Origin: a virus
IMG/VR virus record: IMGVR_UViG_3300050821_014614
DNA: 64,000 nucleotides
Strand: one strand, 5' to 3'
The notes beneath the pieces are model-generated. The model was not told the DNA's origin, did no database searches, and saw only the letters and a list, made by a program, of their open reading frames with translations. Shown piece after piece: positions 13,542 through 55,718 of the stretch. Each line of letters opens with the position of its first letter. Positions within the stretch are counted from its first letter, which is position 1. The position numbers were made by a program, and so were the translations under genes.

Positions 13542-13570
13542 TTGAAGTTGCGTAACGGCCTCACGAGCCC

Positions 13571-13610
13571 TATCGGCGCGCGCCGGAAAAACGTGCAAAC
13601 GCGAATTTAG
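13571..13610 (-). promoter_or_regulatory. conserved motif copy A (TTGCAC-17 nt-CGATAG), promoter-like
   Basis: Minus-strand reading CTAAATTCGCGTTTGCACGTTTTTCCGGCGCGCGCCGATA; similar to copies at 14007-14050 and 50401-50444. Confidence 0.55.
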
Positions 13611-21510: not shown

Positions 21511-22275
21511 ATGAAGTGTCTGTTGTTATTCGCGCCGGCGGTGTTCTGCTTCGCGCAGACGCCGCCGCCCGCGGTCTCGCCGCCCGCGATCTCAGCTTTT
21601 TATCGCCTCGCGGGGCAGGCCGTTAGTCCGGACGAAGGTAAGACGTCGGGGTTCGTCCAGTACAAATGGGCGCTCGTCGACTCTCCGCTCACGTTCACGT
21701 TCGACCTTGCAGGCGCGCCACACCTGGGGGTTTCCGGCGCTGTCGGCGCAACAGGTCCGTCTGGCGCGGATGGCCTGCCGGGCACCGCAGGTCCTGCAGG
21801 AGCTTCAGGCGCGCCTGGCGCAACCGGTCAGCAGGGCGGCGCTGGTGCTGCAGGCGCGGCCGGAGCTGCAGGTCCGCCCGGCGCGACGGGCGCAGCGGGC
21901 TCCGTCGTCGGCATGACGGTCGAAACCGGCTGCGCTACTGCCGCTGGCTGTGTTGTACTCGGAACCGCGACCACGCTCGATGTCGAGCCCGGCATCGGCA
22001 CGCTCTGCGTACCGCAGCTCGATCCAACCAAAGGCGTGATGACGTTGCAGTGCAGCAGCGACACGTCGATCATCGCATATCGGGTTGATGTTCCCACCGG
22101 CGCCGGCCCTTGCGTCGATCCGCTTGATAAACACGCCTACGGTGCAAGCGTGTGGGCTTCAGACGCATCCGGCTTTTACACTTGTGTGCTGCCCCCCGGA
22201 ACGGTGTTGCCCTTGGCGCCAGGCGTGCCGCTGGTCCTCGTGTGGTCTCGCACCGCGGCGACTGTGAGCTGGTAA
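21511..22275 (+). CDS. secreted collagen-like repeat protein
   Basis: MKCLLLFAPAVFCFAQ signal peptide; about 60 aa of G-X-Y triplets (GAVGATGPSGADGLPGTAGPAGASGAPGATGQQG...). Confidence 0.7.
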   Translation: MKCLLLFAPAVFCFAQTPPPAVSPPAISAFYRLAGQAVSPDEGKTSGFVQYKWALVDSPLTFTFDLAGAPHLGVSGAVGATGPSGADGLPGTAGPAGASGAPGATGQQGGAGAAGAAGAAGPPGATGAAGSVVGMTVETGCATAAGCVVLGTATTLDVEPGIGTLCVPQLDPTKGVMTLQCSSDTSIIAYRVDVPTGAGPCVDPLDKHAYGASVWASDASGFYTCVLPPGTVLPLAPGVPLVLVWSRTAATVSW

Positions 22276-24672: not shown

Positions 24673-24676
24673 ACTG

Positions 24677-25024
24677 ATGAACGAGATGATCGTACCGCGA
24701 AAAAAGGCCGTGCCCGCACACTGTAACCCCCGAGTGACAGGCCGCAACGGAGTGTCGCAGACGGTGGCGCGGACCATCCTCGTGTGGCTGGAGCGTATCG
24801 GGAAGAATCAGACCTGGCTTGCCGAAGAGTCAGGCTTGTCGCGCAAACGCGTAAACGAGATCGCCGCCGGACGGCAGAGTGAGATCCACGCCAGCACCCT
24901 TTTCCGGCTGGCGCTGGCACTTAAGCTCACGCCGAACGTGTTGTACGGGTACGCGCATCCGGATTATGTTGTGCACCCGAAGTTCACGCCAGGAGCGGCC
25001 CGGGTTTTTCACGGGCTGGTGTAG
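24677..25024 (+). CDS. XRE/Cro-CI family HTH regulator
   Basis: QTWLAEESGLSRKRVNEIAAGRQSEIHASTLFRLALAL. Start uncertain: ATG 24677 is only 5 nt from the divergent sigma start, and GTG 24752 is possible. Confidence 0.65.
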   Translation: MNEMIVPRKKAVPAHCNPRVTGRNGVSQTVARTILVWLERIGKNQTWLAEESGLSRKRVNEIAAGRQSEIHASTLFRLALALKLTPNVLYGYAHPDYVVHPKFTPGAARVFHGLV

Positions 25025-31000: not shown

Positions 31001-31087
31001 ACCACCAAAGTACTGCTTTTCCTGGGGTTGCGTTCAAAAATATTTATGGTTTCGCCTTCCATTCACCGCGCACCGAAAAACACCACG

Positions 31088-32008
31088 ATGATGACGACGA
31101 TCGATTCCGGCCGGGATTCCGGCTTAAGTAAGGCGGTCGAGGACTACCTCGCTTCGCTCGAGCGCCGCGACGAATCACCGCACACGATAAGAAACTACGG
31201 CGCGGATCTTCGGGAGTTCGCGGTCTATTTTTCGGCAGACGGAATCGCGCCGGCCGACTTCGATCTGCACTCGCTTCGCGGCTGGCTCACCCATCTCGGC
31301 ACGCGCGGGCTGCAGGCAGCCACGATCCGCCGCAGGGTAGCGTCTCTGCGCGGCTTCTTCCGTTTTCTTTCGCGGGAACGGCGGATCCCGTCCGATCCCG
31401 CGCGGCTGCTGCGATCGCCCAAAATAGCCGCGCCGCTGCCCCACGTTCCATCCTGCGAAACGACGAATGCTCTGGTGGACACGGTCGGCGCAGACGGTCC
31501 TGACCGCCCGCATCCGAGGAGGGACCGCCTGCTGTTTGAGATTCTCTATGGTTGCGGCCTGCGCATCAGTGAAGCGGTGGGGCTGAATATGGATGATATC
31601 GACCAGACCGAACGCTGGCTGCATGTCAGAGGCAAAGGAAAAAAGGAACGGCCGGTGCCGTATGGCTCGAAGGCCGCAGGCGCGCTCATCGTATATCTGG
31701 CGGAGAGGGCACCGGCGGACGAGTCCCGCGCGTTGTTTCTGAATCACCGCGGCCGGCGGATAACGGACCGTGGCGCGCGCAACATCGTCAAGTTCTACGC
31801 GACCTTCGGAGCAGGTGACGCATCAATACATCCGCATACGTTGCGCCACGCGTTCGCCACAGATCTGCTGAATAGCGGCGCCGATCTCAGGGCGATACAG
31901 GAACTGCTGGGCCACCGAAGCCTGTCCACTACTAACAGATACACGCGCGTTTCGCTGTCGGATCTGATGCGGGTCTATGATCGGGCGCATCCGAAAGGGA
32001 ACGGTTAG
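31088..32008 (+). CDS. tyrosine recombinase, XerC/XerD-like
   Basis: N-terminal SAM-like core-binding domain; catalytic motifs GLRISEA, HPHTLRHAFAT, LLGHRSLSTTNRYT; trimmed to ATG 31088. Confidence 0.85.
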   Translation: MMTTIDSGRDSGLSKAVEDYLASLERRDESPHTIRNYGADLREFAVYFSADGIAPADFDLHSLRGWLTHLGTRGLQAATIRRRVASLRGFFRFLSRERRIPSDPARLLRSPKIAAPLPHVPSCETTNALVDTVGADGPDRPHPRRDRLLFEILYGCGLRISEAVGLNMDDIDQTERWLHVRGKGKKERPVPYGSKAAGALIVYLAERAPADESRALFLNHRGRRITDRGARNIVKFYATFGAGDASIHPHTLRHAFATDLLNSGADLRAIQELLGHRSLSTTNRYTRVSLSDLMRVYDRAHPKGNG

Positions 32009-36263: not shown

Positions 36264-36339
36264 ATGATTTCCTGCCTTCGGCCGATATACTCGTTTGGAT
36301 GCGAATTCAACCTTACTCCTGGATAAAGAGGACACCCAA

Positions 36340-37068
36340 ATGAAAAACATTGGCAGAAAAGCGCGATTTCGGGCCCCAATTCAACCGTCTGTAGAGACTG
36401 TAGAATTCGCGGCCGAAACGCCGAAACCTAAGAAAAAGGCATTCAAACGAACAGAGCTCGATGAGAATATGTACCTTCAGCCGGAGGAAACGCGGGCTTT
36501 CTTTGAGGCGGTCGAGAGCAGGCGAGACCGCGCCATCTTCAGGGTTCTGTATCACTACGGTCTGCGCGCGCACGAAGTCGGCGTGCTCCAGATAAGCGAT
36601 TACAAAGACCGTGATGGCATGCTCTACATCCGGAGGGGGAAGGGAAGCGTCTCGCGCGACCACCGGCTGATACCGGAGGCGCTGAAGGCCCTGCGCAGCT
36701 ACATCAAGTTCGACCGGGGAACGCAGCCCGGTCCGCTGTTCCAGTCACGCAAGAATCACACGGCGCGTATTCCGCGATCGGTGCAGGAGTTGGATCTGGC
36801 CGCGCGGCGGGGACGCCTCGGCATCAGCAGGTTTATGATCTTCCGGCTGATGCGCCAGTATTGTAAGGCTGCAGGCATCCCTCCGGAGAAAGCGCACCCG
36901 CACGCCTGGAAGCATACGTGTGGAACGTCGATGGCGGACCGTGGCAATGATACCGATGCGATTCAGGACTGGCTCGGACATCGCGACTCCAAGAGCACTG
37001 AAATCTATAAGCACTTCAGCAGGTCGCGCCGCGATGAGTCAGTGGAGAAGAATCGGGACTGGAGTTAA
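36340..37068 (+). CDS. tyrosine recombinase/integrase, short form
   Basis: Catalytic-domain motifs HYGLRAHEV, HPHAWKHTCGT, WLGHRDSKSTEIY; trimmed to ATG 36340. Confidence 0.75.
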   Translation: MKNIGRKARFRAPIQPSVETVEFAAETPKPKKKAFKRTELDENMYLQPEETRAFFEAVESRRDRAIFRVLYHYGLRAHEVGVLQISDYKDRDGMLYIRRGKGSVSRDHRLIPEALKALRSYIKFDRGTQPGPLFQSRKNHTARIPRSVQELDLAARRGRLGISRFMIFRLMRQYCKAAGIPPEKAHPHAWKHTCGTSMADRGNDTDAIQDWLGHRDSKSTEIYKHFSRSRRDESVEKNRDWS

Positions 37069-43467: not shown

Positions 43468-44102
43468 AGACGAAAACGGTATTACAAATGATCGTGATCG
43501 TCGCGCTGGCTGCGAGTGCGTTCGCCCAGTCGCCATCGCCGACGCAACAGCCGAGGTCAGACGGGCCGTTCGGCTTCCGCCGTGGCATGACAAGGGCGCA
43601 GGTATTGGCGGCGGTCGGCCAATCGTCCGTTGATACCACGCTCGGGGGCGAAGACACTCTCGTTGTCACGGTCGCGCCGAGGCCACATCCCTCCTTCACA
43701 AAATACGTGATGATCATTTCCCCAACGGACGGGCTTCTCAAGATGTTGGCGTTTGGAAAGGACGTCGAGACCAACGACTTCGGGAACCAGCTACGCGATG
43801 AGTTCGATTCAATCGTCGCTGGCGTTACCTCGGCGTATGGAAAGCCCACAAGGGCCGACGGTCTACAGTCCGGCAGTATTTGGAACGCTCCAAACGAGTG
43901 GATGATGTCATTGCTTAAAAAGGAGCGGATTCTCCAGTACGATTGGGACGTATCTTCAACGAAACCGAACCGGATTGAGACGGTTACCGTCAGTGCGGTC
44001 GCAGTATCTGAGCACCACGGGTTTGTTGATCTCACCTATGAGTTCGATGGATTCTCCGCATACGCCGAGGCGGTTGTGGCGAAACGAAATCGAGCCTTTT
44101 AA
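43464..44102 (+). CDS. exported protein
   Basis: 212 aa; MKTKTVLQMIVIVALAASAFAQ signal peptide. Confidence 0.6.
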   Translation: MKTKTVLQMIVIVALAASAFAQSPSPTQQPRSDGPFGFRRGMTRAQVLAAVGQSSVDTTLGGEDTLVVTVAPRPHPSFTKYVMIISPTDGLLKMLAFGKDVETNDFGNQLRDEFDSIVAGVTSAYGKPTRADGLQSGSIWNAPNEWMMSLLKKERILQYDWDVSSTKPNRIETVTVSAVAVSEHHGFVDLTYEFDGFSAYAEAVVAKRNRAF

Positions 44103-44139
44103 TCCGGCCCCGCGCCCGCGGCGCAAGGAGAATTAACAG

Positions 44140-44418
44140 ATGACTATCGAACGCAGACTCATCGCCGGCATCGACGACATCAAGGGCGTCACGTTCGAGT
44201 GCCTGAATTGCTCCCTGCGCCACACCGTGCCGCCCGAAAAGATCGGCGATATCCCGGCGCAGTGCCCGCGCTGCCACCATACGTGGATCCCATTTCCGCC
44301 CGCGTCCCCGCTGGTCGATCTCGCGTCGGCGATCGAGCGGATCCGCGCCCTCGATAAGCAGGAGGGAAATAAGCCCGGGTTTCGGGTGCTCCTGGAGCTG
44401 GACGCGCTGAAGCTGTAA
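44140..44418 (+). CDS. zinc-ribbon protein
   Basis: 92 aa; CLNC...CPRC; AAGGAGAATT SD. Confidence 0.5.
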   Translation: MTIERRLIAGIDDIKGVTFECLNCSLRHTVPPEKIGDIPAQCPRCHHTWIPFPPASPLVDLASAIERIRALDKQEGNKPGFRVLLELDALKL

Positions 44419-44470
44419 CGCCGCGCCCCGCGCCCGCGCGGGGGCGAACGCAAATAAGGAGAATTGAGGT

Positions 44471-44854
44471 ATGGACTGGATCAGAGCGAGACGAAAATGC
44501 TCCATCGAGCACGCCTGGAATACTCTTTGCGAACGCATCCGCACCGATATCGACACCTGGCGCGAAGCTGACGATCTCGCAGCGACTGTTGAGTTTTCCA
44601 TGGACGCCAACGTCGCCATCGTGACGAAGAATGCCCGCGGGGCGAGTACAACGCGCATTACCCTGCGCCACAAGGCCCACCATATCGCTGTCGAATTGCC
44701 AGGTAACCAGGAGCACCAGCATTCGCTGATACTGACACCTCTCCTGAACGAAACCGGCGAATGCAGGTTGCGCGCGGGAGGCGAGGAACTCGAATTCTGG
44801 CAGGCATCGCGTAAGATCCTCGAAAAGTTCCTTTTCGCCGACGGCGAAGCATAA
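44471..44854 (+). CDS. hypothetical protein
   Basis: 127 aa; AAGGAGAATT SD. Confidence 0.5.
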   Translation: MDWIRARRKCSIEHAWNTLCERIRTDIDTWREADDLAATVEFSMDANVAIVTKNARGASTTRITLRHKAHHIAVELPGNQEHQHSLILTPLLNETGECRLRAGGEELEFWQASRKILEKFLFADGEA

Positions 44855-44946
44855 TGCGGTCGCTCCAAGCAATAGCGAACGGCCTTATCGTTGTGGGCAT
44901 CGGCGCGATGGTCTTCCTCTTCGTCCGAATTTTGAGGCGTCTGTAA
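44854..44946 (+). CDS. 30-aa hydrophobic micro-ORF
   Basis: MRSLQAIANGLIVVGIGAMVFLFVRILRRL; TAATG overlap with the previous stop. Confidence 0.3.
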   Translation: MRSLQAIANGLIVVGIGAMVFLFVRILRRL

Positions 44947-44951
44947 AACCA

Positions 44952-45188
44952 GTGAAGCGCTGTAAGGTCACCGTCGACGGCCGCACCATCACCGTGGAAG
45001 CGCGATCCCTCTTCTACGCGGCGATCGCCTATAACGCCGAGGCGATCTGCGGGGTCGGCGCCCGCCCGCCGAAGCTTACGCCCGACAGCATCTTAGAGAT
45101 CCTCGTCGAAGGCGAAGCAACCCCGCGGCGCGTGGCCTGGAAGCGCGTGCAGGAATGGTCGAACGCGCAAGGCCTCCCGAAACGCTAA
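44952..45188 (+). CDS. hypothetical protein
   Basis: 78 aa, GTG start. Confidence 0.45.
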   Translation: MKRCKVTVDGRTITVEARSLFYAAIAYNAEAICGVGARPPKLTPDSILEILVEGEATPRRVAWKRVQEWSNAQGLPKR

Positions 45189-45215
45189 AATACCGGGCAG
45201 GGAAGGCGGCGCAGA

Positions 45216-45638
45216 ATGATCGCGCGAATCAACGACGTCGATTATCACATCCAGTGGAGCTATGCGCGCCGCGAAGGCAAGCGCCACCGGCTAGCCCGCA
45301 ATGCGCCCGTTCCCGGCGTCACCGCGTGCGCGATCTGTTGGATCGGCGATGCCGGCAGGATTGTCAGCGCGCTCGGCCAGTCAGTCTGTTCTGCCGCGGA
45401 CAACTGGAACCGCGCCGAAGGCCGGGCGTGGGCATTTGAAGATGCGGTTCATCGCTGCGGGCTTCTTCGCGGCGATATTTCCATGGGGCTCGATCGTTGG
45501 TTCGCCCAGCGCTTTCCTCGGCACGCGCCTCCGGCGAAACGCGTAACCGTCCGCCTCTCCGACGCCGACATTGCATGGCGCAAAGAGGAGGGGCGCGCGC
45601 GGAAGGCGCAAGCCGCGCTTGCGGAGGGCGGCCAATGA
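45216..45638 (+). CDS. hypothetical protein
   Basis: 140 aa ORF. Confidence 0.5.
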   Translation: MIARINDVDYHIQWSYARREGKRHRLARNAPVPGVTACAICWIGDAGRIVSALGQSVCSAADNWNRAEGRAWAFEDAVHRCGLLRGDISMGLDRWFAQRFPRHAPPAKRVTVRLSDADIAWRKEEGRARKAQAALAEGGQ

Positions 45639-45751
45639 GGGCCTGGCTCGTTGTAGCGTTTGTTGCTATCCTACCCGACTGCATGGTGGAAGCGTTGACC
45701 AGGCAGATACGGTATCGGCGCCTGCGCGCGCAAAGGGCGGCAAAGGCATGA
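45635..45751 (+). CDS. 38-aa membrane micro-protein
   Basis: MRAWLVVAFVAILPDCMVEAL...; ATGA overlaps at both ends. Confidence 0.35.
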   Translation: MRAWLVVAFVAILPDCMVEALTRQIRYRRLRAQRAAKA

Positions 45752-45933
45752 CCGATTGCGTAACGCGACCGGAACCCCAGACGATCCAGCGGACGCCCAG
45801 CGCGTCATGCCCGGCGTGCAGAGCGATGCGGCAGCACGTCGACGCGGAGTGGGTGCAGTTCCATCCGGACGCCGGCCACGGGTTTCAGCAGGATCGCGGA
45901 TGGACAAAGCCCGGACTGGAGGGGAATCGCTGA
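45748..45933 (+). CDS. small hypothetical protein
   Basis: Trimmed to ATG 45748. Confidence 0.45.
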   Translation: MTDCVTRPEPQTIQRTPSASCPACRAMRQHVDAEWVQFHPDAGHGFQQDRGWTKPGLEGNR

Positions 45934-46367
45934 TGTGCGGGCAATGCGGAACGCGACCGGCTATATCTGATTCTGCTTTGTGCGGCGAATGTTTTCGCGC
46001 GTCTATCATCGCGCCTCCGGAGACCGACGCCAACGGGCGTTACATCCTCGAAGGGCATGAAGCGGTCCCTTGCGTCGATCTTCTGACATGGGGCCGGTGG
46101 CTCGAAGACCATCGCGCAGAGTGCGGCGTCGCGCATGAGCAGTTCGGCGATTACGAAGTAAGCACGATTTTCATCGGGCTGGATATGAATCTCTGGCGTC
46201 TGCGGGACGGCGACAACGCGCCACCGATGCTTTTCGAAACGATGGTCTTTTCCGGTTTCGACCGCGCCGGAGGAATTCAGGCATGCGCCCGGTGCTCCAC
46301 CTGGACGCAGGCGGAAATCCAGCACGAACGCCTCGCTCGGCAGTTCCGCCTCGCCGCGGTCTCGTAA
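45933..46367 (+). CDS. hypothetical protein with N-terminal Cys4 motif
   Basis: Trimmed to ATG 45933 (MCGQCG...CGEC). Confidence 0.5.
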   Translation: MCGQCGTRPAISDSALCGECFRASIIAPPETDANGRYILEGHEAVPCVDLLTWGRWLEDHRAECGVAHEQFGDYEVSTIFIGLDMNLWRLRDGDNAPPMLFETMVFSGFDRAGGIQACARCSTWTQAEIQHERLARQFRLAAVS

Positions 46368-46375
46368 ACGCAAAA

Positions 46376-46402
46376 CGCCCGCCCCCGGGTTAGGGGCGGG
46401 CG
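46376..46402 (-). terminator. strong GC hairpin terminator between convergent blocks
   Basis: CGCCCGCCCC-7 nt-GGGGCGGGCG; the T-tract (TTTTG) follows it only on the minus strand. Confidence 0.6.
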
Positions 46403-46463
46403 CGCGTGTCTGATGGGATTGCCGCTGTGACTACCAGCTTATCGCGCGGGCTGCGCGGATCGC

Positions 46464-48128
46464 TCAGTAAGTGACCCAGTTCGAGCCATTGCACATGACT
46501 GGCACGAAAGTTCCACCGCCGCTCACGTATGTACCCATGAACGTCGGACTGGCGGCATCGTACACCGTTTCCTTGTCATTCGCGAGTTGCCCGTTGCAGA
46601 CTGGAAGCGGAAAACCAGACGCGCCATAGAGCGAAATAGACTGCGAATTATGCAGAGTCACGTTCAGGGCGCCAGATCGGGTAATGAACTGCATTCCGTT
46701 GGAACCGGAGCCCGCGCTGTTTGAGGGGCCGTAGAGCATGTAGTCGATAGTTCCCGCCAGCTTGTTACCGGCGTCCACGATCAGGGAAGAGCTCGGCGCC
46801 ATCCAACTGGTGCCCCAGCTTTCTCCATCCATATGGAATTTAACCGGCACAACCGAGGAAGCCCCGGAGTCAACCGCGATCATAATTGGTGAACTCTCGA
46901 CCCGCGCGGATCCCTCGACGTCGTGATTGTAGGCGTAGAGATAGATGCCGGCATTACAGCCGTACAGGTATGGAGAGGTCATCAGGCCGTGTTCCCCGGG
47001 CACCAGGCAATGGTTCATGAACGCGACTTTGCCGCCAACCTCTAACTGCACGTTGTTGTATGCCTGCGGCATCCAGATACCGGTACTGCCGCCTGTCGGC
47101 GCGTTCCAGGTACAGCAGGGGCTTGCTACGTCCGGCGCAGAAGCAACAACAGTATGATTGCCAACGTGCGCCTGCAATGCGTTCGCGAGCATCAGGCCGT
47201 TTAGTTTCGTCTGGGCCGGAAGGCTCCAGTTCAGGTTATCGGTAACCAGATCCAGGCCTTCAAATATGCTCCCGAAGTTGCCGGAAGTCGCAGCAACATA
47301 GGGCGCTGCGGAGAAGGCTGAGTTACCTGACACATTCGGTGCGTCGCTAAAATCCAACGTCACGTTCGGCGCTTCACCGAGCAGCGTCACCGGGACCGGG
47401 AAACCATACCCGACGCTTTGCGGCACTGTCAGGATGCCGCCGGTCGCGGGGTCCGCCACACAATTCATGCGATAGTAGCCATCCGTTCCGGTCTGCCGGA
47501 ACCACACGATGCCACCGGCCCCTGTGTTGTAAGACGCTGCTATAGCAGCATTCGCCGAAGCGCAGTCGCTGTGCTTCACAGTTACCCCGGTGACGGCAAT
47601 CGTGCAGTTCACGGCCAGGGTGAAGATATTACCGGAAATCGCCGTGACCTTAGTCGCCAGGTTTCCATGGGGGTTTTGGGTTACGGTAGAAACGCAGCCG
47701 GGAATCCAGATACCGTGACCAACAGAAAATGTCGCCGCGCTGACTACGGTCAGAGAGTTTGTGTTGGCCGCTATCGTCCCTGTCGTCGTCGCCGCTGAGC
47801 CGCTTGCACTGTAGTTTGCGACAACGTCGTATTTGTAGAGCGACGAGGCGCCTGCGCCGCGCAATTGCCACTGCCCTGCCGCGACAGACGTGCAGGCCGG
47901 AGCCGGGGTGCCCGCTGCCGCGCCGCATATGTACTCCGCGACCGGGCTGGTGGCTGTGTTGAGGTAGCTGTCCTGCGAAAGATTGCCGGCTACAGATCCG
48001 GGAGCCCCGGCGCCGTTGAACGCGCGCGGAGTGACGGCAGAGATGGCAGGCGTATTCCGCTGCCCGATATCGCGGACCTGGCCAAAACAGGAAAGAGCGA
48101 TGAAGACGAGCGTGAGGGCGAGCTTCAT
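46464..48128 (-). CDS. exported beta-helix (pectate-lyase/tailspike-like) protein
   Basis: 554 aa; MKLALTLVFIALSCFGQ signal peptide; Gly/Asn/Thr/Ser-rich with ...GAGGIVWFRQTGTDGYY... segment. Confidence 0.6.
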   Translation of the reverse strand: MKLALTLVFIALSCFGQVRDIGQRNTPAISAVTPRAFNGAGAPGSVAGNLSQDSYLNTATSPVAEYICGAAAGTPAPACTSVAAGQWQLRGAGASSLYKYDVVANYSASGSAATTTGTIAANTNSLTVVSAATFSVGHGIWIPGCVSTVTQNPHGNLATKVTAISGNIFTLAVNCTIAVTGVTVKHSDCASANAAIAASYNTGAGGIVWFRQTGTDGYYRMNCVADPATGGILTVPQSVGYGFPVPVTLLGEAPNVTLDFSDAPNVSGNSAFSAAPYVAATSGNFGSIFEGLDLVTDNLNWSLPAQTKLNGLMLANALQAHVGNHTVVASAPDVASPCCTWNAPTGGSTGIWMPQAYNNVQLEVGGKVAFMNHCLVPGEHGLMTSPYLYGCNAGIYLYAYNHDVEGSARVESSPIMIAVDSGASSVVPVKFHMDGESWGTSWMAPSSSLIVDAGNKLAGTIDYMLYGPSNSAGSGSNGMQFITRSGALNVTLHNSQSISLYGASGFPLPVCNGQLANDKETVYDAASPTFMGTYVSGGGTFVPVMCNGSNWVTY

Positions 48129-49024
48129 TGTGTGATCGACCCTCCGTTTATCGTGCAGTTAGTGGTGCCACCCCCGGCTTCGACGAATTCGTAAAAGTAG
48201 CCGTTCGGTATAATTCCAACGATTTCCTGGTTAAAGCCGCCCACAATCTGAAACCAATTCGTGTTGACCGATACGGTTGGCGGTGACGCAGCCCCCGCTA
48301 AAACTGCCATCACCTGGCTGCTGCTGCAAAAACCGCCGCCCGCTACCGTCTGCGGCGCTCCCGACGTGTTCTGATAAATGGTTCTAATGGCGAATGAGAA
48401 ACTGGAGATAGCCGCAAAAGGCGCCGCACCGCATGTCGCCGTCACAATCTGCGAACTGGAATTCGTTCCCACGCAGGTTTGTGAAGCTGGCACGGCGGCG
48501 CTATTCACACTGTTAATCAACGTTCCGAACTGCGCAGGCGAAAGTTCCACTATCGCTGTCGCGCCGGCAGACGCCGATGTCAGAAGCGTGCCGATGATCC
48601 GCGTCGAGGTACTGATCGAGGCGGACGCCGTAGGGCCGGAAAACCCGGAGTCGCGGCAATCGATGACTGTGGACGTCCCGGGAATCACGAGATGGCCAGC
48701 CGTTGCGTTGTTGTCCATGACACACGCGACCTGCCCGTAACGCTGGACCTGCACGGACGCCGTAGCGATGGCCGTCGAGAGCGCTACACCGTGCGCGCCT
48801 GCGCCGGTTGCTGCGATGGCTTTCGCGGGCGAAGACGTGTCCGTTATTACGAGCGTATTCGCTGTCACGCCGCCTGAGCCGGCGATGAACGTTTCTGTCG
48901 CACACGCCTTTGCGTTGATCTCAGCTGCTGCTACCGTGCTGCCGCTGGCAGATGCCGAACACTGTCCGAAAAGTGAAGCTCCGGAAGCGGCGAGAATCAC
49001 CGCGAGAAATATGGTGTTTTTCAT
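48125..49024 (-). CDS. exported Ala/Ser/Thr-rich fibre-like protein
   Basis: 299 aa; MKNTIFLAVILAASGASLFGQ signal peptide; 4-nt overlap with the next gene. Confidence 0.6.
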   Translation of the reverse strand: MKNTIFLAVILAASGASLFGQCSASASGSTVAAAEINAKACATETFIAGSGGVTANTLVITDTSSPAKAIAATGAGAHGVALSTAIATASVQVQRYGQVACVMDNNATAGHLVIPGTSTVIDCRDSGFSGPTASASISTSTRIIGTLLTSASAGATAIVELSPAQFGTLINSVNSAAVPASQTCVGTNSSSQIVTATCGAAPFAAISSFSFAIRTIYQNTSGAPQTVAGGGFCSSSQVMAVLAGAASPPTVSVNTNWFQIVGGFNQEIVGIIPNGYFYEFVEAGGGTTNCTINGGSITQ

Positions 49025-49025
49025 G

Positions 49026-50156
49026 TTAGTTAGTCATCCCTGTCCATTGAGAATTTGTCGCGGCAGTCCATTGCGAATTGGTCATTCCGGTCCACGAAAG
49101 ACTCAGATTTGGACCGTTGCCCATTCCGGTCCATTGCGCATTTGTCATCCCTGTCCACTGCGCGTCGGTGAGCTGAGTCCACAGCAAAGAAGCGCCGCAC
49201 GAAGCCCAGCCGTACGCGTAAGACGGTCCGCTCGTGACGGTGACCTGCGGGCAGTAAACGCCAACGACCGATGGAGGCGAGCCGAACACACCGATGGACC
49301 CGGCAGGCCCTGTCGGCCCCGGCGCTCCCGTTGCCCCCTGCGCGCCAGTCGATCCGATCGCGCCCGTGCCGCCTCCGAGAATCGTTACCGATCCGGTGAA
49401 TCCGCCGGGCCAGGAGAATGTAATATTGCCCGACGAATCCGCGGACCAATCGCAGGCGATGGAGTGCGTTGAGGCGTCGAAACAAAAACCGGCCGGATGA
49501 ATGCCCTGCCCGTGCGTCGCCGCAGTGACCGTCAAAGTCGAAAGCGCGGTTACCGTTGCTGGGTAAGGCGCGTTGCCTGTGCCTGGAGGCCCGGTGCCGC
49601 CCACCGCGCCCACCGCGCCAGTTGCGCCGGCCGCACCCGCCGATCCGGCCGGGCCGGTGGGCCCCGGAGGTCCCCCGCTCGGGCCTCCCGGCCCGGTGGC
49701 GCCCGTCGCTCCCGTCGCGCCCGCCGCGATCACGACGTTCGGCGTCGTGAGGCACCCGATTGCGCCCGGAGTGCATTCGATCGCGCTGACCAGATAGGGG
49801 CCGCCCGAGGAAGGCACCGTCCAGTTACGGGTGAACTTGGTCGTGCCCACAATAGGCGGCGGGTTATTGACCGTATAGCTCGCCACCACGGTCGCGCCTG
49901 GGGGCACGCAAACGAGAGCGGCAGCGTTGTAGTAGAGAGTTCCCGCTTTAACCTGCACCTGCATCTGGCTCTGCTCCATCTGGGGATTCCCGGAGATGGT
50001 ATAGTTCAGCGCCAGGGCGATCGTGCCCGTCAGCGGACCCGCCAGTGTGCTGACCGGGCCGGTAATCTGGATGCCGGTCGGCGCCGCGCAGCTCTGGCCG
50101 TATAGCGGAATGCCCGGCGCCGCCAGAGCCACGAGTGCGAGCAGGAGTTTGGTCAT
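49026..50156 (-). CDS. exported collagen-like fibre protein with C-terminal Trp-heptad repeats
   Basis: 376 aa; MTKLLLALVALAAPGIPLYGQ signal peptide; two G-X-Y tracts; C-terminal (T/N)xxQWTGM repeats. Confidence 0.7.
   Translation of the reverse strand: MTKLLLALVALAAPGIPLYGQSCAAPTGIQITGPVSTLAGPLTGTIALALNYTISGNPQMEQSQMQVQVKAGTLYYNAAALVCVPPGATVVASYTVNNPPPIVGTTKFTRNWTVPSSGGPYLVSAIECTPGAIGCLTTPNVVIAAGATGATGATGPGGPSGGPPGPTGPAGSAGAAGATGAVGAVGGTGPPGTGNAPYPATVTALSTLTVTAATHGQGIHPAGFCFDASTHSIACDWSADSSGNITFSWPGGFTGSVTILGGGTGAIGSTGAQGATGAPGPTGPAGSIGVFGSPPSVVGVYCPQVTVTSGPSYAYGWASCGASLLWTQLTDAQWTGMTNAQWTGMGNGPNLSLSWTGMTNSQWTAATNSQWTGMTN
49029..49178 (-). repeat. in-frame 21-nt tandem repeats (heptads xxxQWTG)
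   Basis: WTQLTDAQWTGMTNAQWTGMGNGPNLSLSWTGMTNSQWTAATNSQWTGMTN at the C-terminus of ORF 49026-50156. Confidence 0.7.
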
Positions 50157-50174
50157 TTGGGGAATTCCGGGGAA

Positions 50175-50393
50175 TTACTTAGCTGATGGAGGAAGCCCAG
50201 CCGCATCGACGCAAATCAATTCCAGCGTCGGAACTCCGTCAATAAAGACGATCCCCACAATGCAGGGATATGGCTGCGCAGGCATCACCGGCGCGGGTGG
50301 CCTTGGCTCCGGGCGCCGCGGCATTGCTCCGGCCGTCGCCCCGATACAAGACATGCAGGCGGCCGCTAGCGATAGCCCGATGAACTTTTTCAT
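50175..50393 (-). CDS. small exported protein, possible lipoprotein
   Basis: 72 aa; MKKFIGLSLAAACMSC; the ATG lies only about 10 nt after motif copy C. Confidence 0.55.
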   Translation of the reverse strand: MKKFIGLSLAAACMSCIGATAGAMPRRPEPRPPAPVMPAQPYPCIVGIVFIDGVPTLELICVDAAGLPPSAK

Positions 50394-50400
50394 GTACCCG

Positions 50401-50444
50401 GCTAATCGGCGCGCAGGCGGGAAACGTGCAAAGGGCCCGGTTAG
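50401..50444 (-). promoter_or_regulatory. conserved motif copy C (TTGCAC-17 nt-CGATTA), promoter-like
   Basis: CTAACCGGGCCCTTTGCACGTTTCCCGCCTGCGCGCCGATTAGC on the minus strand, between the spike gene and the exported-protein operon. Confidence 0.55.
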
Positions 50445-51769
50445 CTCTGGGTGTGCGAGTGTGCCGGGGTCCCGTTGACTGAGGTAGCTGCGCCCTTTGT
50501 TGCGGTGTTCGCCATCATGCCAAAAAGCGTGCTGATGCTGCTGTTAATGCTGGCAATCAGCGTATCCAGCGAACCAGCCGTAATTGTCACGTCAGTAAAT
50601 GTCGGACTATCTGCCGTTCCAAGATTTTGAGCATGGACACCGCCAAGATTGCCCGAAAGACTCGTGTCGCCGTTGACGTTGAAATTCTTGTTATGCGCTG
50701 AGGTTCCGACAGCTACGGCAACCCCGAACTGCATCGAGGCCCCTCCCAGGGTATCGCCGACGCCGACAAGAGAGTTGTAACTGCCCGCCGAGGCCGTGCT
50801 CGCCCCAGGGAAGCTATTGACGAACCCGGTTGTCGCGCCACCCCAGAGCGTGCCGCTGATATTGCCGCTCAGGTCATTGAACGCGAACATGTTCACGTTC
50901 ACCGCATTCGCCAGGACGGCGAAGTTAGTCAGCGTGGCGGGGGTGTACATCCCCATCCCCATGATATTCACGACCCCGCCAGACAGGGCTAGAAATTGCG
51001 CGTAGTTGCCGCCTGTCGAGCGGTCTTGCTCGATGAAGCAGTCCGTCACCCGGACATAGTTGCCGTTGTTCGCGTCCACCACCAAAAACGTGTAATCGAC
51101 CGACCCGCCGAGGGCGAAATTCGGGTTCTCGAAATGGCAACCTGTGATGACCACCTGAGCAGCGGAAGTTCCCCCGTTTCCGATCCGGAGCTGCGCCTGG
51201 TCGAAAGAGCAGTGCGCAAAAATGATTTCCTGGCCTCCGCCCTGTATCCAGACTGAATTGGTGTGCGGCGCCGGCGCATCCGCAAAAGTCACGTGGTCAA
51301 ATTCGACATTTTCGCCCGCCTGTGTCATGCCGCTGGGCATCAGGACGTTGGTGCCTCCATCGCGAATCATGCCGTGCGAGAACCGGGTGATCCACGTATT
51401 CGAGGAGGTCTGAAGATTCACGCCGAACGACTGGATCTTGAAGTACTCGGCGCTCAGGCCGACCGCGCCATTGGCTCCGCCCACGATAACGCCAATTGTT
51501 GAGGTGGAGTTACCCGGCCCTGTCAGTGTGATATTTTTCAGCCCCGAGCAGAAATCGAAAGCAGCTCCGTTATTGAAAGTAATCGCGGTCCCGGTTGTCG
51601 GGGTGAAGATAAGTTCCACGGCATTGCCGAAACCCCGCAGCGTCGCCACCTTGCCCGGTACCGCTAAGACGATCGGAACCGTGAACGTTCCGCCCTGATC
51701 GATAACGATCTCACCGCCCTCTGGCGGCAACGCAGCATATGTTGTATTTACGAATGTTCCGATGTCCAT
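50441..51769 (-). CDS. tail spike/fibre with right-handed beta-helix-like repeats
   Basis: 442 aa, no signal peptide; ...NITLTGPGN..., ...VVITGCHFENPNF...; C-terminal SPTFTDVTITAGS fibre-like motif; follows the tail hub gene. Confidence 0.55.
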   Translation of the reverse strand: MDIGTFVNTTYAALPPEGGEIVIDQGGTFTVPIVLAVPGKVATLRGFGNAVELIFTPTTGTAITFNNGAAFDFCSGLKNITLTGPGNSTSTIGVIVGGANGAVGLSAEYFKIQSFGVNLQTSSNTWITRFSHGMIRDGGTNVLMPSGMTQAGENVEFDHVTFADAPAPHTNSVWIQGGGQEIIFAHCSFDQAQLRIGNGGTSAAQVVITGCHFENPNFALGGSVDYTFLVVDANNGNYVRVTDCFIEQDRSTGGNYAQFLALSGGVVNIMGMGMYTPATLTNFAVLANAVNVNMFAFNDLSGNISGTLWGGATTGFVNSFPGASTASAGSYNSLVGVGDTLGGASMQFGVAVAVGTSAHNKNFNVNGDTSLSGNLGGVHAQNLGTADSPTFTDVTITAGSLDTLIASINSSISTLFGMMANTATKGAATSVNGTPAHSHTQS

Positions 51770-51770
51770 G

Positions 51771-54700
51771 TTAGTTTCGCGGGTTTACGAGCGAGTGAAT
51801 AAGCAAAGGTGCGTCCGGGCTCGGCACGAAGACTTCCTGCCATGGCGCAAATCGCACCGGCGAGATATTGCCCTGCTTATCCTGCGTGACGACCTGCACG
51901 AGAAAAGACTGCGATCCCGCGCTCGAAAACGGAACCTGCAGCGCAGCAAGAACGGCTGTGCCGCCCCCGCCGAACGTGGCGGCGTCATACGTAGATGCCG
52001 CGGCCGGAATAGTAAGCGACGGCGCGGATTCGAGGATTGAGAAGACGCTGGTACCGTCAGGAATCGTAGTCCAGGCCTGCGTGATCGTCAATGTCGTGGA
52101 TGTATTCGAGGCGATATTGCGCCTTTGGCCAGCGCCGGTGCCTTTCATGATCCAGACGACTTTCCCATACTCCGCGTTGACGATCAGGCCGCCCGGCGCG
52201 AACTGATTCACAAAGGCCGAATCGCCGATCGTGGTCGCCGAGGCGATGTTCGCCATCGCGCGCATCACATAGGCATCCCCGGCATGGCCGAACGTCGCCT
52301 GCGTCACCGTCATATTGCCCGACGTGTCGTTCGCCGTGACGTTGAAATTCCCAGGCTGCGCGTAGCAGAGCCCCGCAAAGGTCTGCGGCCCGACGCCGCC
52401 GATCGGGATCGGCGTGGCCGAACCGTAGGCGGACAGAATACGGCCTGCCCACTGGCTCGCGGTGGGCGATGAAGGAATGGAGATGACGCCGGAAGCGATC
52501 GCCGATGCGCTGCTACCCCAGATGCCGCCGTGCCGGATCGGCGTGAGCAAAAGCATCACGTTCGTTTCGACAACGTCCGGGCGCCCCGGCCCGTCGGTTG
52601 ACCAGATGATTTCGGCGCCTATCGTGATGGTGGCTGCGACGGGGTTGTGAGCGAATGAGGGCGGCGGATCTACCAGCCACATATTCAGCGAATGCGGGCC
52701 GAGATACGCCTCATAGGTGACTGCCTTCGAATCCCAGACGATATTCGAAACCGTGATGGTGGATCCGGCCGAAGCCACGACCGCCTTCACGTTAGCGGAG
52801 GGCTGCGATTTAGAGCCCGCGGCGTCGATGCCAACGAGGGAAACGAGCCAGGTGCCCGCCGCGATCGCGCCGCCCGAGCCGACCGTCGCCTGCAGCGGCA
52901 CGCGTGGAGCCGAGGTCACCGATGAGGGCACATTCACGACTGGCGCCGACGCAATTGTGATCTGACCGTTGGTCGTGTAAAGCCCGATCGTTTCGAGCCC
53001 CGGAAAGAGCGCATCGTTCGATGGGTATGGGCTGTAGCCCGGCTTTAATGGCCAGGGCAGCCGGTTCGGCGCGGCCGAGAGCGGATTCTTCTGGTAGGGC
53101 GCCGGATCCTGACCGTACAGATCCGTATGCCACTGATCGAAATGCCAGCGGAACGCGAGGTCCCAATGCTCACCGTCCGTATTCGGCGTGGCGGAAAGCA
53201 GGCGCGCGAGCACCATGGAAAAACTCGCCTGCGCATAGATGATCCCGCATATGAAGCCAACCCGACTGGCGAGGTGCGCGGCCTTGACCGTCGTTTTAAA
53301 AGACGGAAGCTCAGTGCCGCCGGCGTCGAAGCGCGAATTACCGTAGAGCGCCTTGGCCAGCTCGATATTCGAAACGCGGGTGCCCTGGTCGAAATTGTCG
53401 ATACCCATCGGCGCGAACGATGCGGGAATCTCCTGATTGCCCGACGTGACGTAACCGTCCGGATCGATGGTTGTGATCGTGTCCTGAACGAACTGGTTCG
53501 CTTCATCCTGAAACGGAAACGTGATCGTGTTCGGCGTGTCGTTCAGCGTCCGCCCGCCCAGCTTGAAGGTGCCTTTCTCGATCGACGGTTGCACGGTCGC
53601 CGAGCCGCCATCGAAGAGATACGCGAGGTAGCCCGGCGTTGTAAGCGATGGAACCAGCGTCGTGCTCGTCGCCGGCATGGACGCCACGGCGGTCGAATAG
53701 TTCGAGCCCGAAATCGGCGCGCTCTGCTGGTCTGCCAGCGTCTGCTCGATGAAGCACTGGATTAATCCGTTGACCGGGTTGCGCGCGAGAATAATACACG
53801 CGCAGCCGCGTATCGCGAGCACCGCTTTCGCGAGCGATTGCCGCTGAGTCGTAGTCAGAGCGAGCGAGCAGCGGAAGCGCGCATGGGTGGCCGCGTTGTT
53901 ATTGATATCGGTATAGCCGATCTGCACTGCGCAGATCTGCGCCGCGGCGTACCAGCTGGCGGCGTCGATGTCGAGCGCCGTGAAAGGGCCCCAGCAGGCC
54001 AGCAGGTCCATCAGCGCCCAGACCGGGTTGGCCGCGACCGCAATGGTCGGAATGCCGCCGGCGCTGGGAACTACATCGCTGAAGCCATCATCGGAAGCTG
54101 CGATCGGATAGTAGAAGATACTACCGCCGGTTCCGTTAAAGTTGCCCGGGATGGTGATGGTGCCCGTTGTCGGCGAGACGGTTTGCGTGACGGCGGACGC
54201 TGTATAGGAACCGTTCGGGACGCCGGAGTTGCCGGCGAGAAAGAAGGCTTGTCCGGCGTTCACGCCCGCGTTGTAGTTGTTCCCTACACCGGCGGCAAGG
54301 TGGAGAATCGTATTGCCGCCGCCGCTATACACCGCGCTCGCGATCGGATAAGCGTGGAGGCACTGCGGGAACTGCACGAGGACCTGCACCGTCGGGATGG
54401 ATCCGGAGCCGGCCAGTTCCGCCGGTACCGTGACCAGGATCCAGCAGGTCGAGCCATGCGGATCGCCTTGCCCGTTGAGCACAGGGACCTGGCTTACCGT
54501 GCTCGATCTGCCGCCGCCCGATCTGACGACATATGTGAAATCGTTCGTAGCGGGAGCGTTCTCCGGAACCTCGACGCCGTTGACCAGAACTTTCAGGACC
54601 GTCGCCGGGCCGTTCGTGGCCATGCAAACGATGCACTCGGCAAGTAGGTCGTTCGATCCGGAGAATGGTTCGAGAACTGTCGCGTTGACCCACTGCGTGC

Positions 54701-55718
54701 CGTAGCCCTGGTTGTAATAGGTTGTTCCGGTGGGCGGATTCGGCGCGTTGAAGCCGTATTGCGTACCGGCGGACGGGTTAACATACTGCTTGCCCGACCA
54801 GCCCTGCGGAGAGACCCATGTGTCGCCCGTGAAGTGCCCGGTGGCGCGGTTGCCGCTGTCATTCGCGATATCGCCATCCGGGCCGCATGGCTTGCCGCCC
54901 GAGCCGAATGTCGTGGTGGCAGCATAGTTACCGAGCCGCGCCATGCAGCCCTGTGTGCGCGTGCCCCGGCCAGACCCGCAGGAGCGGGTGTAATCGCACA
55001 TCACATAGTTGCCTGCGCTATCGGTCAGCGCGGAGCCGTCAGGATTGGTGAGGTTAGCGGTAGTCGTATTACCGACGCCGCCAATACTGATCAGGTCGGG
55101 AGAGTAGCCACAGCCGAAAAACAGTGAGGTCGGATTGACCAGGCCATCGAGCCGCTGCGCCGCGTTCGCAGGGAACGTGTTGCCGCAGCGATTCTGGCGG
55201 GCGAAATTCGGGACGGTCAGCCGCGTCATCGACTGCCGCGCCTGCCCCGTGACCTTGATGACGCCGGCGCCGAAATCGACGCTCGGCTTGTCGAGAATGA
55301 ACGTCCACGTATAGGCGTTCGTCGAATAAGAGAAACTCAGAATGTCCCAGAGGACGAAAATCACGGTCAGCGTGCCGCCGCGCCACCCAAACGCGTTGGC
55401 GTGCGTGGTCCAGATCGTGAAATCGCCGTCCGCAATCACGAGCGAGATCGAACCCGGGATGTCGTAGCCCTGCGGGGACTGCGCCTGTATCTGTTCGATC
55501 GGGTTGCCCTGCAGGCGCGCTTCGTAAACGTTGCCGGCATACGTCAGCGTGTTGCCGCCGAGCCCCGGCGTAGTGGTCAGGTAAGTGACGTCGCTGCCCG
55601 AATCCACCAGCTTCGTCGCGGGGTTGATCGCCGCGAGCGCGCAGAGGATCAGCGGCTTCGGGATGACGTTCGCCTGGATGAGGCCGGTCTCTTTGCCGGA
55701 TTCGATGGTGAAGGACAT
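51771..55718 (-). CDS. tail hub / host-specificity protein (gpJ- or GTA-g15-like)
   Basis: 1315 aa, downstream of tape measure and distal tail genes; call based on size and position. Confidence 0.6.
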   Translation of the reverse strand: MSFTIESGKETGLIQANVIPKPLILCALAAINPATKLVDSGSDVTYLTTTPGLGGNTLTYAGNVYEARLQGNPIEQIQAQSPQGYDIPGSISLVIADGDFTIWTTHANAFGWRGGTLTVIFVLWDILSFSYSTNAYTWTFILDKPSVDFGAGVIKVTGQARQSMTRLTVPNFARQNRCGNTFPANAAQRLDGLVNPTSLFFGCGYSPDLISIGGVGNTTTANLTNPDGSALTDSAGNYVMCDYTRSCGSGRGTRTQGCMARLGNYAATTTFGSGGKPCGPDGDIANDSGNRATGHFTGDTWVSPQGWSGKQYVNPSAGTQYGFNAPNPPTGTTYYNQGYGTQWVNATVLEPFSGSNDLLAECIVCMATNGPATVLKVLVNGVEVPENAPATNDFTYVVRSGGGRSSTVSQVPVLNGQGDPHGSTCWILVTVPAELAGSGSIPTVQVLVQFPQCLHAYPIASAVYSGGGNTILHLAAGVGNNYNAGVNAGQAFFLAGNSGVPNGSYTASAVTQTVSPTTGTITIPGNFNGTGGSIFYYPIAASDDGFSDVVPSAGGIPTIAVAANPVWALMDLLACWGPFTALDIDAASWYAAAQICAVQIGYTDINNNAATHARFRCSLALTTTQRQSLAKAVLAIRGCACIILARNPVNGLIQCFIEQTLADQQSAPISGSNYSTAVASMPATSTTLVPSLTTPGYLAYLFDGGSATVQPSIEKGTFKLGGRTLNDTPNTITFPFQDEANQFVQDTITTIDPDGYVTSGNQEIPASFAPMGIDNFDQGTRVSNIELAKALYGNSRFDAGGTELPSFKTTVKAAHLASRVGFICGIIYAQASFSMVLARLLSATPNTDGEHWDLAFRWHFDQWHTDLYGQDPAPYQKNPLSAAPNRLPWPLKPGYSPYPSNDALFPGLETIGLYTTNGQITIASAPVVNVPSSVTSAPRVPLQATVGSGGAIAAGTWLVSLVGIDAAGSKSQPSANVKAVVASAGSTITVSNIVWDSKAVTYEAYLGPHSLNMWLVDPPPSFAHNPVAATITIGAEIIWSTDGPGRPDVVETNVMLLLTPIRHGGIWGSSASAIASGVISIPSSPTASQWAGRILSAYGSATPIPIGGVGPQTFAGLCYAQPGNFNVTANDTSGNMTVTQATFGHAGDAYVMRAMANIASATTIGDSAFVNQFAPGGLIVNAEYGKVVWIMKGTGAGQRRNIASNTSTTLTITQAWTTIPDGTSVFSILESAPSLTIPAAASTYDAATFGGGGTAVLAALQVPFSSAGSQSFLVQVVTQDKQGNISPVRFAPWQEVFVPSPDAPLLIHSLVNPRN

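Follow-up and report, generated by a model that had tools for sequence, protein, structure and literature searches.

The locus considered here lies within a 64,000-nucleotide (nt) stretch of DNA, the IMG/VR virus record IMGVR_UViG_3300050821_014614, which we call the window and whose numbering is used for all coordinates below. The window covers most of the circularly permuted genome of a temperate siphophage of soil Acidobacteriota, a member of a Bryobacteraceae-associated lineage. Behind the tail genes of this phage, on the minus strand, stands a cassette of four consecutive open reading frames (ORFs): ORF1 (72 amino acids, aa; 50175-50393), an ORF call whose status as a gene is uncertain; ORF2 (376 aa; 49026-50156), a predicted signal peptide followed by a collagen-like fibre; ORF3 (299 aa; 48125-49024), with a signal peptide, a conserved N-terminal domain, and a variable C-terminal head; and ORF4 (554 aa; 46464-48128), a signal peptide followed by a beta-helix. 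The gene immediately upstream (50441-51769, minus strand) encodes a spike-like protein of 442 aa whose N-terminus is not signal-like, and for which Pfam, PHROG, and PDB sequence searches gave no family match. This gene is separated from ORF1 by 47 nt, ORF1 from ORF2 by 18 nt, and ORF2 from ORF3 by 1 nt; ORF3 and ORF4 overlap by 4 nt (ATGA). An earlier account of this DNA, made from the letters alone (hereafter the sequence-only reading), had described four fibre-like proteins with Sec-type signal peptides downstream of a signal-less spike gene. The four ORFs are present with the lengths and N-termini it gave, and the signal-like N-termini, the signal-less spike, the collagen triplets, and the beta-helix were all borne out; the description "fibre-like" holds for ORF2 (collagen) and ORF4 (beta-helix) and fails for ORF1, which is a doubtful gene and does not resemble a fibre. 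Three, possibly four, of the cassette genes carry predicted export signals, so that their products apparently leave the cytoplasm.

Sec signal peptides, which are marked by a positively charged n-region, a hydrophobic h-region of 7-15 residues, and a c-region with small residues at -3 and -1, were called with a conservative heuristic of our own that combines the n-, h-, and c-region architecture with the residues at -3 and -1. By this heuristic ORF1 to ORF4 are positive; the 442-aa protein, the 1315-aa Tal, the Dit-like protein, and the tape-measure protein are negative. Of the window's 408 six-frame ORFs with 60 aa or more, only 12 are positive, nearly all of them in plausible genes, and whole-protein shuffles of ORF1-4 yielded a signal-like N-terminus in 0.1-3% of trials. 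The rate among cassette genes (4/4) compares with about 8/84 among the other genes (Fisher p = 2e-4). Beyond the N-terminus, no hydrophobic 19-residue window occurs in ORF2, ORF3, or ORF4. Despite sequence drift, the signal is kept in all seven ORF2 homologues, usually with a cut site of the form (A/G)↓Q and a cysteine (Cys) soon after, in the pattern Q-(S/T)-C, as well as in all three ORF3 homologues and in the close relatives of ORF4 (L003, P0009, and P0041). In these respects the N-termini behave like genuine, evolutionarily conserved Sec signals of the host type; as judged from the sequences, signal peptides are present and under selection.

Cleavage is predicted at LYG↓Q in ORF2 (signal peptide aa 1-20), LFG↓Q in ORF3 (aa 1-21), and CFG↓Q in ORF4 (aa 1-16), and an [AGS]↓Q site is found in 26 of the 33 signal-bearing proteins of the collected loci (the window and L003-L015). 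Predicted cleavage before glutamine (Gln) resembles the "Q-rule", which has been described as specific to Bacteroidetes, with Acidobacteria unmentioned (PMC5837995); the sites collected here suggest that Bryobacteraceae-type Acidobacteriota and their phages may follow a similar rule. The mature chains of ORF2, ORF3, and ORF4 would contain 8, 8, and 12 Cys, respectively (about 2-2.8%), and the Cys count of the predicted mature chain is even in 26/33 signal-bearing proteins (one-sided binomial p = 7e-4, for proteins that are partly homologous and hence non-independent). Such a Cys content fits what would be expected of disulfide-bonded extracytoplasmic proteins. A lipoprotein assignment of ORF4, raised by a regular-expression match (MKLALTLVFIALSC), was rejected: because its orthologues carry T, L, or V at -1, the conserved feature is C-F-G↓Q and no lipobox. 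Inspection of the C-termini by eye revealed neither a PEP-CTERM nor an outer-membrane beta-signal.

In ORF2 the signal peptide is followed by a conserved N-domain of ~120 aa (aa 22-145), collagen, a globular domain, collagen again, and octad repeats. Runs of G-X-Y triplets cover aa 146-163, 165-194, and 262-294 (18, 30, and 33 residues), making up a first collagen block (aa 146-194; 49575-49721, minus strand), in which aa 146-192 form the best stretch for Pfam Collagen, and a second (aa 262-294; 49275-49373, minus strand). The Pfam Collagen match (PF01391, E = 9.5e-5, 22.5 bits) falls under the 27.2-bit gathering score; the homologue P0159 has a precomputed PF01391 match, and ORF2 itself matches PHROG tail-fibre families with E-values down to 2e-13. 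Its N-domain is common to L014_268 and L007_c617, proteins whose C-terminal parts differ. We take ORF2 to be a collagen-like fibre. The C-terminus (49026-49150) consists of 4-5 octad repeats of the form TN(A/S)QWTGM, and the same octad period recurs in the homologues P0159-P0165 and in L012, with W replaced by L or M (LTNSQLTS, TNSQMATA). In ORF3, probably another fibre or head protein, a conserved N-terminal domain (aa ~35-170) is combined with a variable C-terminal head (aa ~200-299), which in L003 is joined directly to collagen repeats. A PDB profile search with ORF3 returned noise only, and an AlphaFold2 (AF2) model from a four-sequence alignment reached a predicted local distance difference test (pLDDT) score of 29.7, too low for a fold; our guess would be a C1q-like head on a beta-barrel N-domain. 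No recognisable virion adaptor domain was found in ORF2-4 with Pfam or PHROG, where the matches are driven by collagen only.

ORF4 comprises, in order, the signal peptide, a Cys-motif N-module (aa 17-97), a beta-barrel plus beta-helix (~95-500), and a C-terminal domain (~495-554). Here structure prediction was confident: with pLDDT >90 over most of aa 95-500, AF2 produced a small beta-barrel and a right-handed beta-helix, and AF2 and Foldseek together assign this core (46629-47846, minus strand) to the tailspike/capsule-depolymerase type. The top Foldseek matches in the PDB are Klebsiella phage K64-1 S2-4, KP34p57, and AP22 gp54 (E = 4e-5 to 2e-4), and capsule or O-antigen depolymerases of Klebsiella, Acinetobacter, and Pseudomonas phages match with E = 4e-5 to 4e-3, at low TM-scores (0.13-0.43) and about 10-14% sequence identity; in BFVD, too, the top matches are a tailspike and capsule depolymerases. 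A PDB search by sequence gave no match, and PF12708 matches 8 of 30 ORF4 homologues and not ORF4 itself. Conserved columns of the ORF4 alignment include H186/D187/D188, E379/H380, E411, and E436. The model confirms a beta-helix fold of the tailspike/capsule-depolymerase type, and we regard ORF4 as a putative glycanase.

ORF4 has few close relatives among 5.8 billion clusters. The closest, at 69% identity, is L003, in the NCBI metagenome-assembled genome (MAG) GCA_040384345.1 (JAWVGX010015067.1, 1768-3240). Its annotated start is an internal Met (461 aa); initiation at a GTG overlapping the upstream stop gives 490 aa and the signal MRSLFLILLASTCFGQ. Start mis-calls of this kind may hide signal peptides on phage fibre-like genes. 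An exhaustive HMMER search collected 392 ORF4 relatives; among the top 150, roughly half are signal-bearing, and the others begin like ordinary phage fibres. The beta-barrel/beta-helix of several homologues with a signal starts about 25-35 residues into the chain. The Cys-motif module is repeated internally in P0003 and P0005, and the C-terminal domain of ~60 aa recurs at the C-terminus of many other proteins. We found no GenBank phage with a relative of ORF4 or Tal, and a genome scan with the ORF4 alignment yielded no confirmed locus.

ORF1 is a Pro-rich 72-aa ORF with a signal-like N-terminus (MKKFIGLSLAAACMSCIGATAGA...). Its GC content by codon position is weak and flat (0.62/0.56/0.63), no gene is called over its interval on L001, the only identical contig covering it, its sequence is absent from a collection of 15 billion proteins, and Pfam and PHROG contain no homologue. 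An assignment as o-spanin or lipoprotein was discarded, there being no match to a PROSITE-like lipobox regular expression and a distance of ~40 kb to the M15 endolysin gene, besides the doubt about the gene itself. ORF1 is a possible small exported peptide of uncertain gene status.

Relatives of the locus were found via Tal, the tail-tip or central-fibre-like protein (1315 aa; 51771-55718, minus strand), or via homologues of ORF2 and ORF4; the Tal search gave L006, L007 (= L016), and L008 and recognised L014 and L015. Five members of the phage lineage could be compared, namely the window, L007, L008, L014, and L015, and all five close their tail operon with signal-bearing genes, from one to seven in a row. 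L007, a prophage in a 108-kb contig of a Bryobacteraceae MAG, has seven consecutive signal-bearing genes after Tal (620, 135, 617, 133, ~575, 245, and 356 aa), the first of which overlaps the Tal stop, and L008 has a single one (965 aa) 14 nt after Tal. L014 has two signal-less genes (370 + 254 aa) followed by two signal-bearing ones, and L015 a signal-less 902-aa Pect-lyase spike followed by signal-bearing ORF2-like, ORF3-like, and ORF4-N-module proteins. Together with the 442-aa gene of the window, this places signal-less spikes between Tal and the cassette in three of the five members. A further locus, L012, carries ORF2-like and ORF3-like genes and three more signal-bearing genes consecutively. 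Pfam recognised almost nothing in the signal-bearing proteins of L007, L008, and L012, giving only a weak Beta_helix match in L008_965. Viral scans with the ORF4 alignment and Dit, together with a metagenome scan using the N-domain of ORF2, contributed few further loci of use: L026 was informative, L021-L024 were not. Within L007 (14154-22380), large genes (~575-620 aa) alternate with small ones (133-135 aa), like fibre/chaperone pairs, and at the prophage end a recombinase-like gene follows the seven signal-bearing genes.

Neither position nor tail context is fixed for the cassette's fibre genes, which move singly or together with the beta-helix gene. In L011 a signal-bearing collagen protein and a signal-bearing ORF4-like beta-helix protein lie between capsid and lysozyme genes, and the gene following the 1307-aa Tal-like protein of that locus is signal-bearing as well; L017 has the same gene order, with the signal confirmed there for the beta-helix protein P0015 only. 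L026 encodes a 532-aa collagen protein, ORF2-like and with a signal, between its head-tail connector genes. In L009/L010 a chromosomal gene pair encodes a member of the ORF2 family (953 aa) and a homologue of ORF4 (537 aa), both signal-bearing, the latter 46% identical to ORF4 by pairwise BLASTP (48% in a library search). Its neighbours are genes for a TonB-type outer-membrane protein, Acyl_transf_3, LexA, NfeD, LipA, and Lnt, with no phage gene within about 10 kb, and in L009 the ORF4 relative lies next to Acyl_transf_3, a surface-polysaccharide-type gene.

According to the sequence-only reading, the cassette is a separately promoted and terminated operon. A promoter-like motif and a terminator do flank it. 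The motif (copy C, 32 nt, TTTGCACGTTTCCCGCCTGCGCGCCGATTAGC; 50401-50432, minus strand) lies in the 47-nt gap between the 442-aa gene and ORF1, and its layout, read 50432-50401, is TTTGCACGTTT-N-GCGCGCCGAT(TAGC). Two further minus-strand copies, one at 14038-14007 (29/32 identical, E = 2e-6) and a looser one at 13599-13572, lie in the divergent region heading the late operon, one of them directly before a NusG-like gene. This operon, likewise on the minus strand, starts near 14 kb, runs through the head genes, and wraps to the tail genes at 63.9-46.4 kb, where it encodes a tape-measure-like protein of 1028 aa, a DUF2460-type Dit, Tal, and the 442-aa protein. Because the other two copies head the late operon and precede the NusG-like gene, we infer that the motif is a phage late-promoter or loading element. 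The late (tail) operon is closed by an intrinsic terminator (46375-46403, minus strand) whose 12-bp stem, with 10 G-C pairs, is read 46403-46375 and followed by TTTGCGTTT; its folding energy is -31.7 kcal/mol (z = -3.9), and none of 200 shuffles was as stable.

It is the separateness that does not stand. Since no terminator lies between the cassette and the upstream tail genes, the cassette is the last section of the late operon, at best promoted once more from within, and no operon of its own. Moreover, the motif was not found in the relatives, where the gap from the upstream tail gene to the signal-bearing genes is -4 to 14 nt, and we rejected it as a conserved cassette promoter on that ground. 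Because the motif is shared with the late operon, and because the cassette genes of the relatives are tightly coupled to tail genes, late lytic expression is favoured over expression in the lysogen, contrary to the lysogenic conversion that had been suggested. A sigma-70 consensus scan found no site before the cassette, and Rfam found no known RNA in 44000-52000. The three copies of the motif share the pattern TTTGCACGTTT-N6-GCGCGCCGAT and stand a few nt before gene starts, so that the transcripts may be leaderless or have very short leaders. Among the other products of the phage are a sigma-70-family protein with regions 2 and 4 (23617-24777, minus strand) and a NusG/KOW protein (12927-13598, minus strand), which together with the motif form a candidate self-contained late-transcription and antitermination system.

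The interpretation that we favour, at a probability of roughly 0.5, is that the locus encodes a Sec-exported, disulfide-bonded fibre-plus-glycanase cassette that would act late on the host's surface polysaccharide and take no part in the virion; exported depolymerase, adhesin, or envelope-remodelling cargo was among the possibilities named by the sequence-only reading. The cassette (ORF2-4, plus ORF1 if it is a real gene) would derive from tail-fibre and tailspike modules and be transcribed late by read-through from the tail genes, probably boosted by the internal late-promoter-like motif. Each product would be exported through Sec across the inner membrane and cut by signal peptidase I at the predicted (A/G)↓Q site, and the Cys-rich mature chains, as their Cys content and parity suggest, would form disulfide bonds in the periplasm. 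ORF2 would then yield a collagen-stalked fibre, ORF4 a depolymerase-type beta-helix, and ORF3 probably a second fibre or head protein. From the periplasm or from outside, these products may bind, cut, or remodel the host's own exopolysaccharide (EPS), capsule, or lipopolysaccharide (LPS), with the result that progeny would be freed from the matrix, or the receptor stripped or masked on the dying cell and its debris, or both. We propose action during egress because the evidence argues for late lytic expression. Export without virion assembly is favoured because signal-less spikes are already present upstream in three of the five lineage members, because the fibre genes move between unrelated positions and persist at a phage-free chromosomal site, because several signal-bearing homologues leave no room for a virion adaptor between signal and enzyme core, and because an exported EPS glycanase with a tailspike fold (WceF, PMC7949094) and phage cargo with signal peptides in Porphyromonas gingivalis (PMC10367356) are both known.

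WceF of Pantoea stewartii is a bacterial EPS glycanase with a tailspike fold, exported by the twin-arginine translocation (Tat) pathway, that acts on its producer's own exopolysaccharide (PMC7949094). Compared by fold type, it resembles ORF4 in that an export signal precedes a right-handed beta-helix as in phage tailspikes, and it resembles L009 in that the chromosomal ORF4 relative there also adjoins a surface-polysaccharide-type gene (Acyl_transf_3). The two differ in signal type, Tat in WceF and Sec in ORF4, and in setting: WceF is encoded in a chromosomal EPS biosynthesis cluster, ORF4 by a phage, where its gene closes a tail operon and is accompanied by genes for collagen-like fibres. The P. 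gingivalis prophage proteins with signal peptides obey the Bacteroidetes Q-rule and have been read as cargo (PMC10367356); like the cassette proteins, they are phage-encoded, with host-type export signals and Gln at +1. The virion depolymerases that match the ORF4 core best in structure (Klebsiella phage K64-1 S2-4, KP34p57, Acinetobacter phage AP22 gp54, and Pseudomonas phage LKA1 gp49) are like ORF4 in being encoded after the tail-tip protein and in combining a conserved N-terminus with a variable C-terminus, but they lack a signal peptide and have N-terminal virion-adaptor domains where ORF4 has a Sec-type signal and the Cys-motif module.

Late-operon morons such as lambda lom and bor, T5 llp, and cor lie in or next to tail-fibre regions. 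They and the P. gingivalis cargo share with the cassette a phage origin and export signals, and have been read as serving envelope-modifying or exclusion functions; they are, however, encoded singly, most of them are small, and their type is either unknown or outer-membrane/lipoprotein, whereas the cassette proteins are large, fibre- or depolymerase-like, present in up to seven consecutive genes, and conserved across the lineage. PblA and PblB of the Streptococcus mitis phage SM1 are reportedly tail-fibre-like phage proteins acting on the bacterial surface, and are said to differ in having no signal peptides and in reaching the surface through phage lysis. The mosaic adhesive trimer (MAT) fibre proteins of Bdellovibrio are said to be phage-tail-fibre-like and exported. 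They are chimeric fibres in cellular, non-virion use (PMC10769870), as the cassette products would be, and they differ in being encoded by chromosomal genes of a predator and not by phage genes in a tail operon.

Several considerations weigh against the interpretation as exported, non-virion cargo. Export, cleavage, and disulfide bonds are predictions, and the Cys-parity statistic counts homologous, non-independent proteins. The domain repertoire is exactly that of real receptor-binding fibres, with collagen stalks and swapped C-terminal parts, as seen in the conserved N-modules with exchanged C-terminal parts of ORF4 and L015_625 and of ORF2 and L014_268, and the genes of L007 alternate between large and small. 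Every relative examined has at least one signal-bearing gene after its tail genes, which is unusually constant for accessory cargo, and L007 and L008 have no signal-less spike between Tal and the signal-bearing genes. We identified no route across the outer membrane and, for ORF4, no catalytic residues or substrate; ORF3 has no fold assignment. Finally, the two chromosomal genes of L009 may be the remnant of one end of a prophage.

Many of the same features would be accounted for if the cassette products were true virion side fibres or tailspikes, exported through Sec, assembled as disulfide-bonded periplasmic trimers, and docked on cytoplasmic tails after holin lesions or lysis. This we judge to be unlikely, at perhaps one chance in a handful. 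The distal position in the tail operon, found in all five members and often with translational coupling to Tal or the spike gene, would be natural for such fibres, as would conserved N-modules with exchangeable C-terminal parts, which are typical of receptor-binding proteins, the L007 alternation of ~575-620-aa with 133-135-aa products, which recalls fibre/chaperone pairs, and the direct succession of Tal and signal-bearing genes in L007 and L008. About half of the wider ORF4 homologues are signal-less with ordinary phage-fibre N-termini, and the ORF4 module therefore functions in virions elsewhere. Against virion fibres speak the signal-less spikes already standing upstream in 3/5 members, the finding of cassette genes at other sites (flanked by capsid and lysis genes, inserted among connector genes, or in chromosomal DNA free of phage genes), and the lack of space for an attachment domain where the beta-helix module starts 25-35 residues from the N-terminus; docking after lysis would also compete with dilution. 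We know of no precedent among tailed phages for virion fibres assembled via export. Lack of a signal peptide usually counts as a mark of virion proteins, and has explicitly been used as evidence of virion origin (PMC6199706).

A lysogenic-conversion moron, expressed in the lysogen from its own promoter and decorating the envelope with collagen-like adhesins and a glycanase, is an interpretation that we likewise consider improbable. It would lead to altered aggregation or biofilm formation, or to superinfection exclusion by masking or removal of the receptor. The phage is temperate (two integrases), its relative L007/L016 sits as a prophage in a contig of a Bryobacteraceae MAG, the promoter-like motif and the terminator flank the cassette, related genes occupy moron-like insertion sites in other phages and a chromosomal site without phage genes, and the signal-bearing prophage proteins of P. 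gingivalis have been read in this way (PMC10367356). However, two copies of this very motif head the late operon, which, together with the phage's own sigma-70-family and NusG-like proteins, points to late lytic expression; moreover, the relatives have neither the motif nor the intergenic space for one (-4 to 14 nt), and no terminator shields the cassette from read-through out of the tail genes. Least probable by far is that the hydrophobic N-termini are no cleaved signals at all and reflect chance, mis-assigned starts, uncleaved anchors, or structural helices of cytoplasmic virion proteins: the calls do rest on a home-made heuristic, the sites (L or C at -3, G at -1) are less canonical than A-x-A, and ORF1 is perhaps no gene, but signal-like N-termini are rare in six-frame ORFs and shuffles, the n/h/c architecture with its site before Gln is kept across divergent homologues, the starts of ORF3 and ORF4 sit tight against the upstream stops (1 nt apart and an ATGA overlap), and Cys residues as numerous as these, mostly in even numbers, are in keeping with an oxidising compartment.

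The absence of a signal peptide is a routine means of telling virion fibres from cellular surface proteins, and host-range prediction pipelines take any fibre- or depolymerase-like gene behind the tail-tip gene to encode a receptor-binding protein; in the whole of this lineage such genes carry predicted host-type export signals. A full-text literature search found no paper on signal peptides of tail-fibre- or tailspike-like phage proteins. The Acidobacteriota are a dominant and poorly studied phylum with very few cultured phages. If the products are exported cargo, as much as about 8 kb of the late operon (the span of the seven L007 genes) would be given over to remodelling the host's polysaccharide envelope from within, possibly as a strategy for release or against readsorption in EPS-rich soil microcolonies, and such loci would be a source of secreted depolymerases. 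If they are instead virion fibres, tailed-phage assembly would have a periplasmic branch, a two-compartment route not known from tailed phages.

Elsewhere in the window, the late operon contains the genes for TerL (6622-7971), the portal (4582-6123), and a P22-type coat protein (2822-3733), all on the minus strand. The temperate character of the phage is apparent from its integrases: two tyrosine-recombinase (Phage_integrase) genes occur in the one genome, at 31028-32008 and 36295-37068, both on the plus strand. The endolysin, a Peptidase_M15 protein, is encoded at 9003-9443 (minus strand), and two genes upstream, at 9749-10501 (minus strand), lies a class-3 lipase/esterase (Pfam Lipase_3, 2e-24), with a 99-aa ORF (9446-9745) between them. 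The Lipase_3 protein, which recalls the LysB esterases of mycobacteriophages, may help in breaking the outer envelope at lysis. Close to the endolysin gene is also a signal-like 88-aa ORF (8559-8825).

Signal-bearing proteins occur at other places in the same genome. In the head-to-tail part of the structural operon, a 196-aa protein (144-734, minus strand) has a strong signal peptide (MKILLLILALAVSCLA↓QQ), an ATGA overlap with the upstream gene, and no family match. Outside the structural operon, the plus strand encodes a second collagen-like protein with a signal (21511-22275; 254 aa), which matches Pfam Collagen at 4e-9 and would have 6 Cys once mature; its neighbours include a 99-aa protein with a Tat-like N-terminus (MKPLTRRRLFALL...; 20786-21085, plus strand) and a 600-aa protein (18987-20789, plus strand) with a weak match to TrwB-type P-loop proteins. 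The Tal-like proteins of the window, L007, L008, L014, and L015 have 13-23 Cys each, and where Tal is split, nearly all of these lie in the N-terminal part (20 vs 1 in L007, 13 vs 0 in L015), which suggests metal clusters in a cytoplasmic virion protein.

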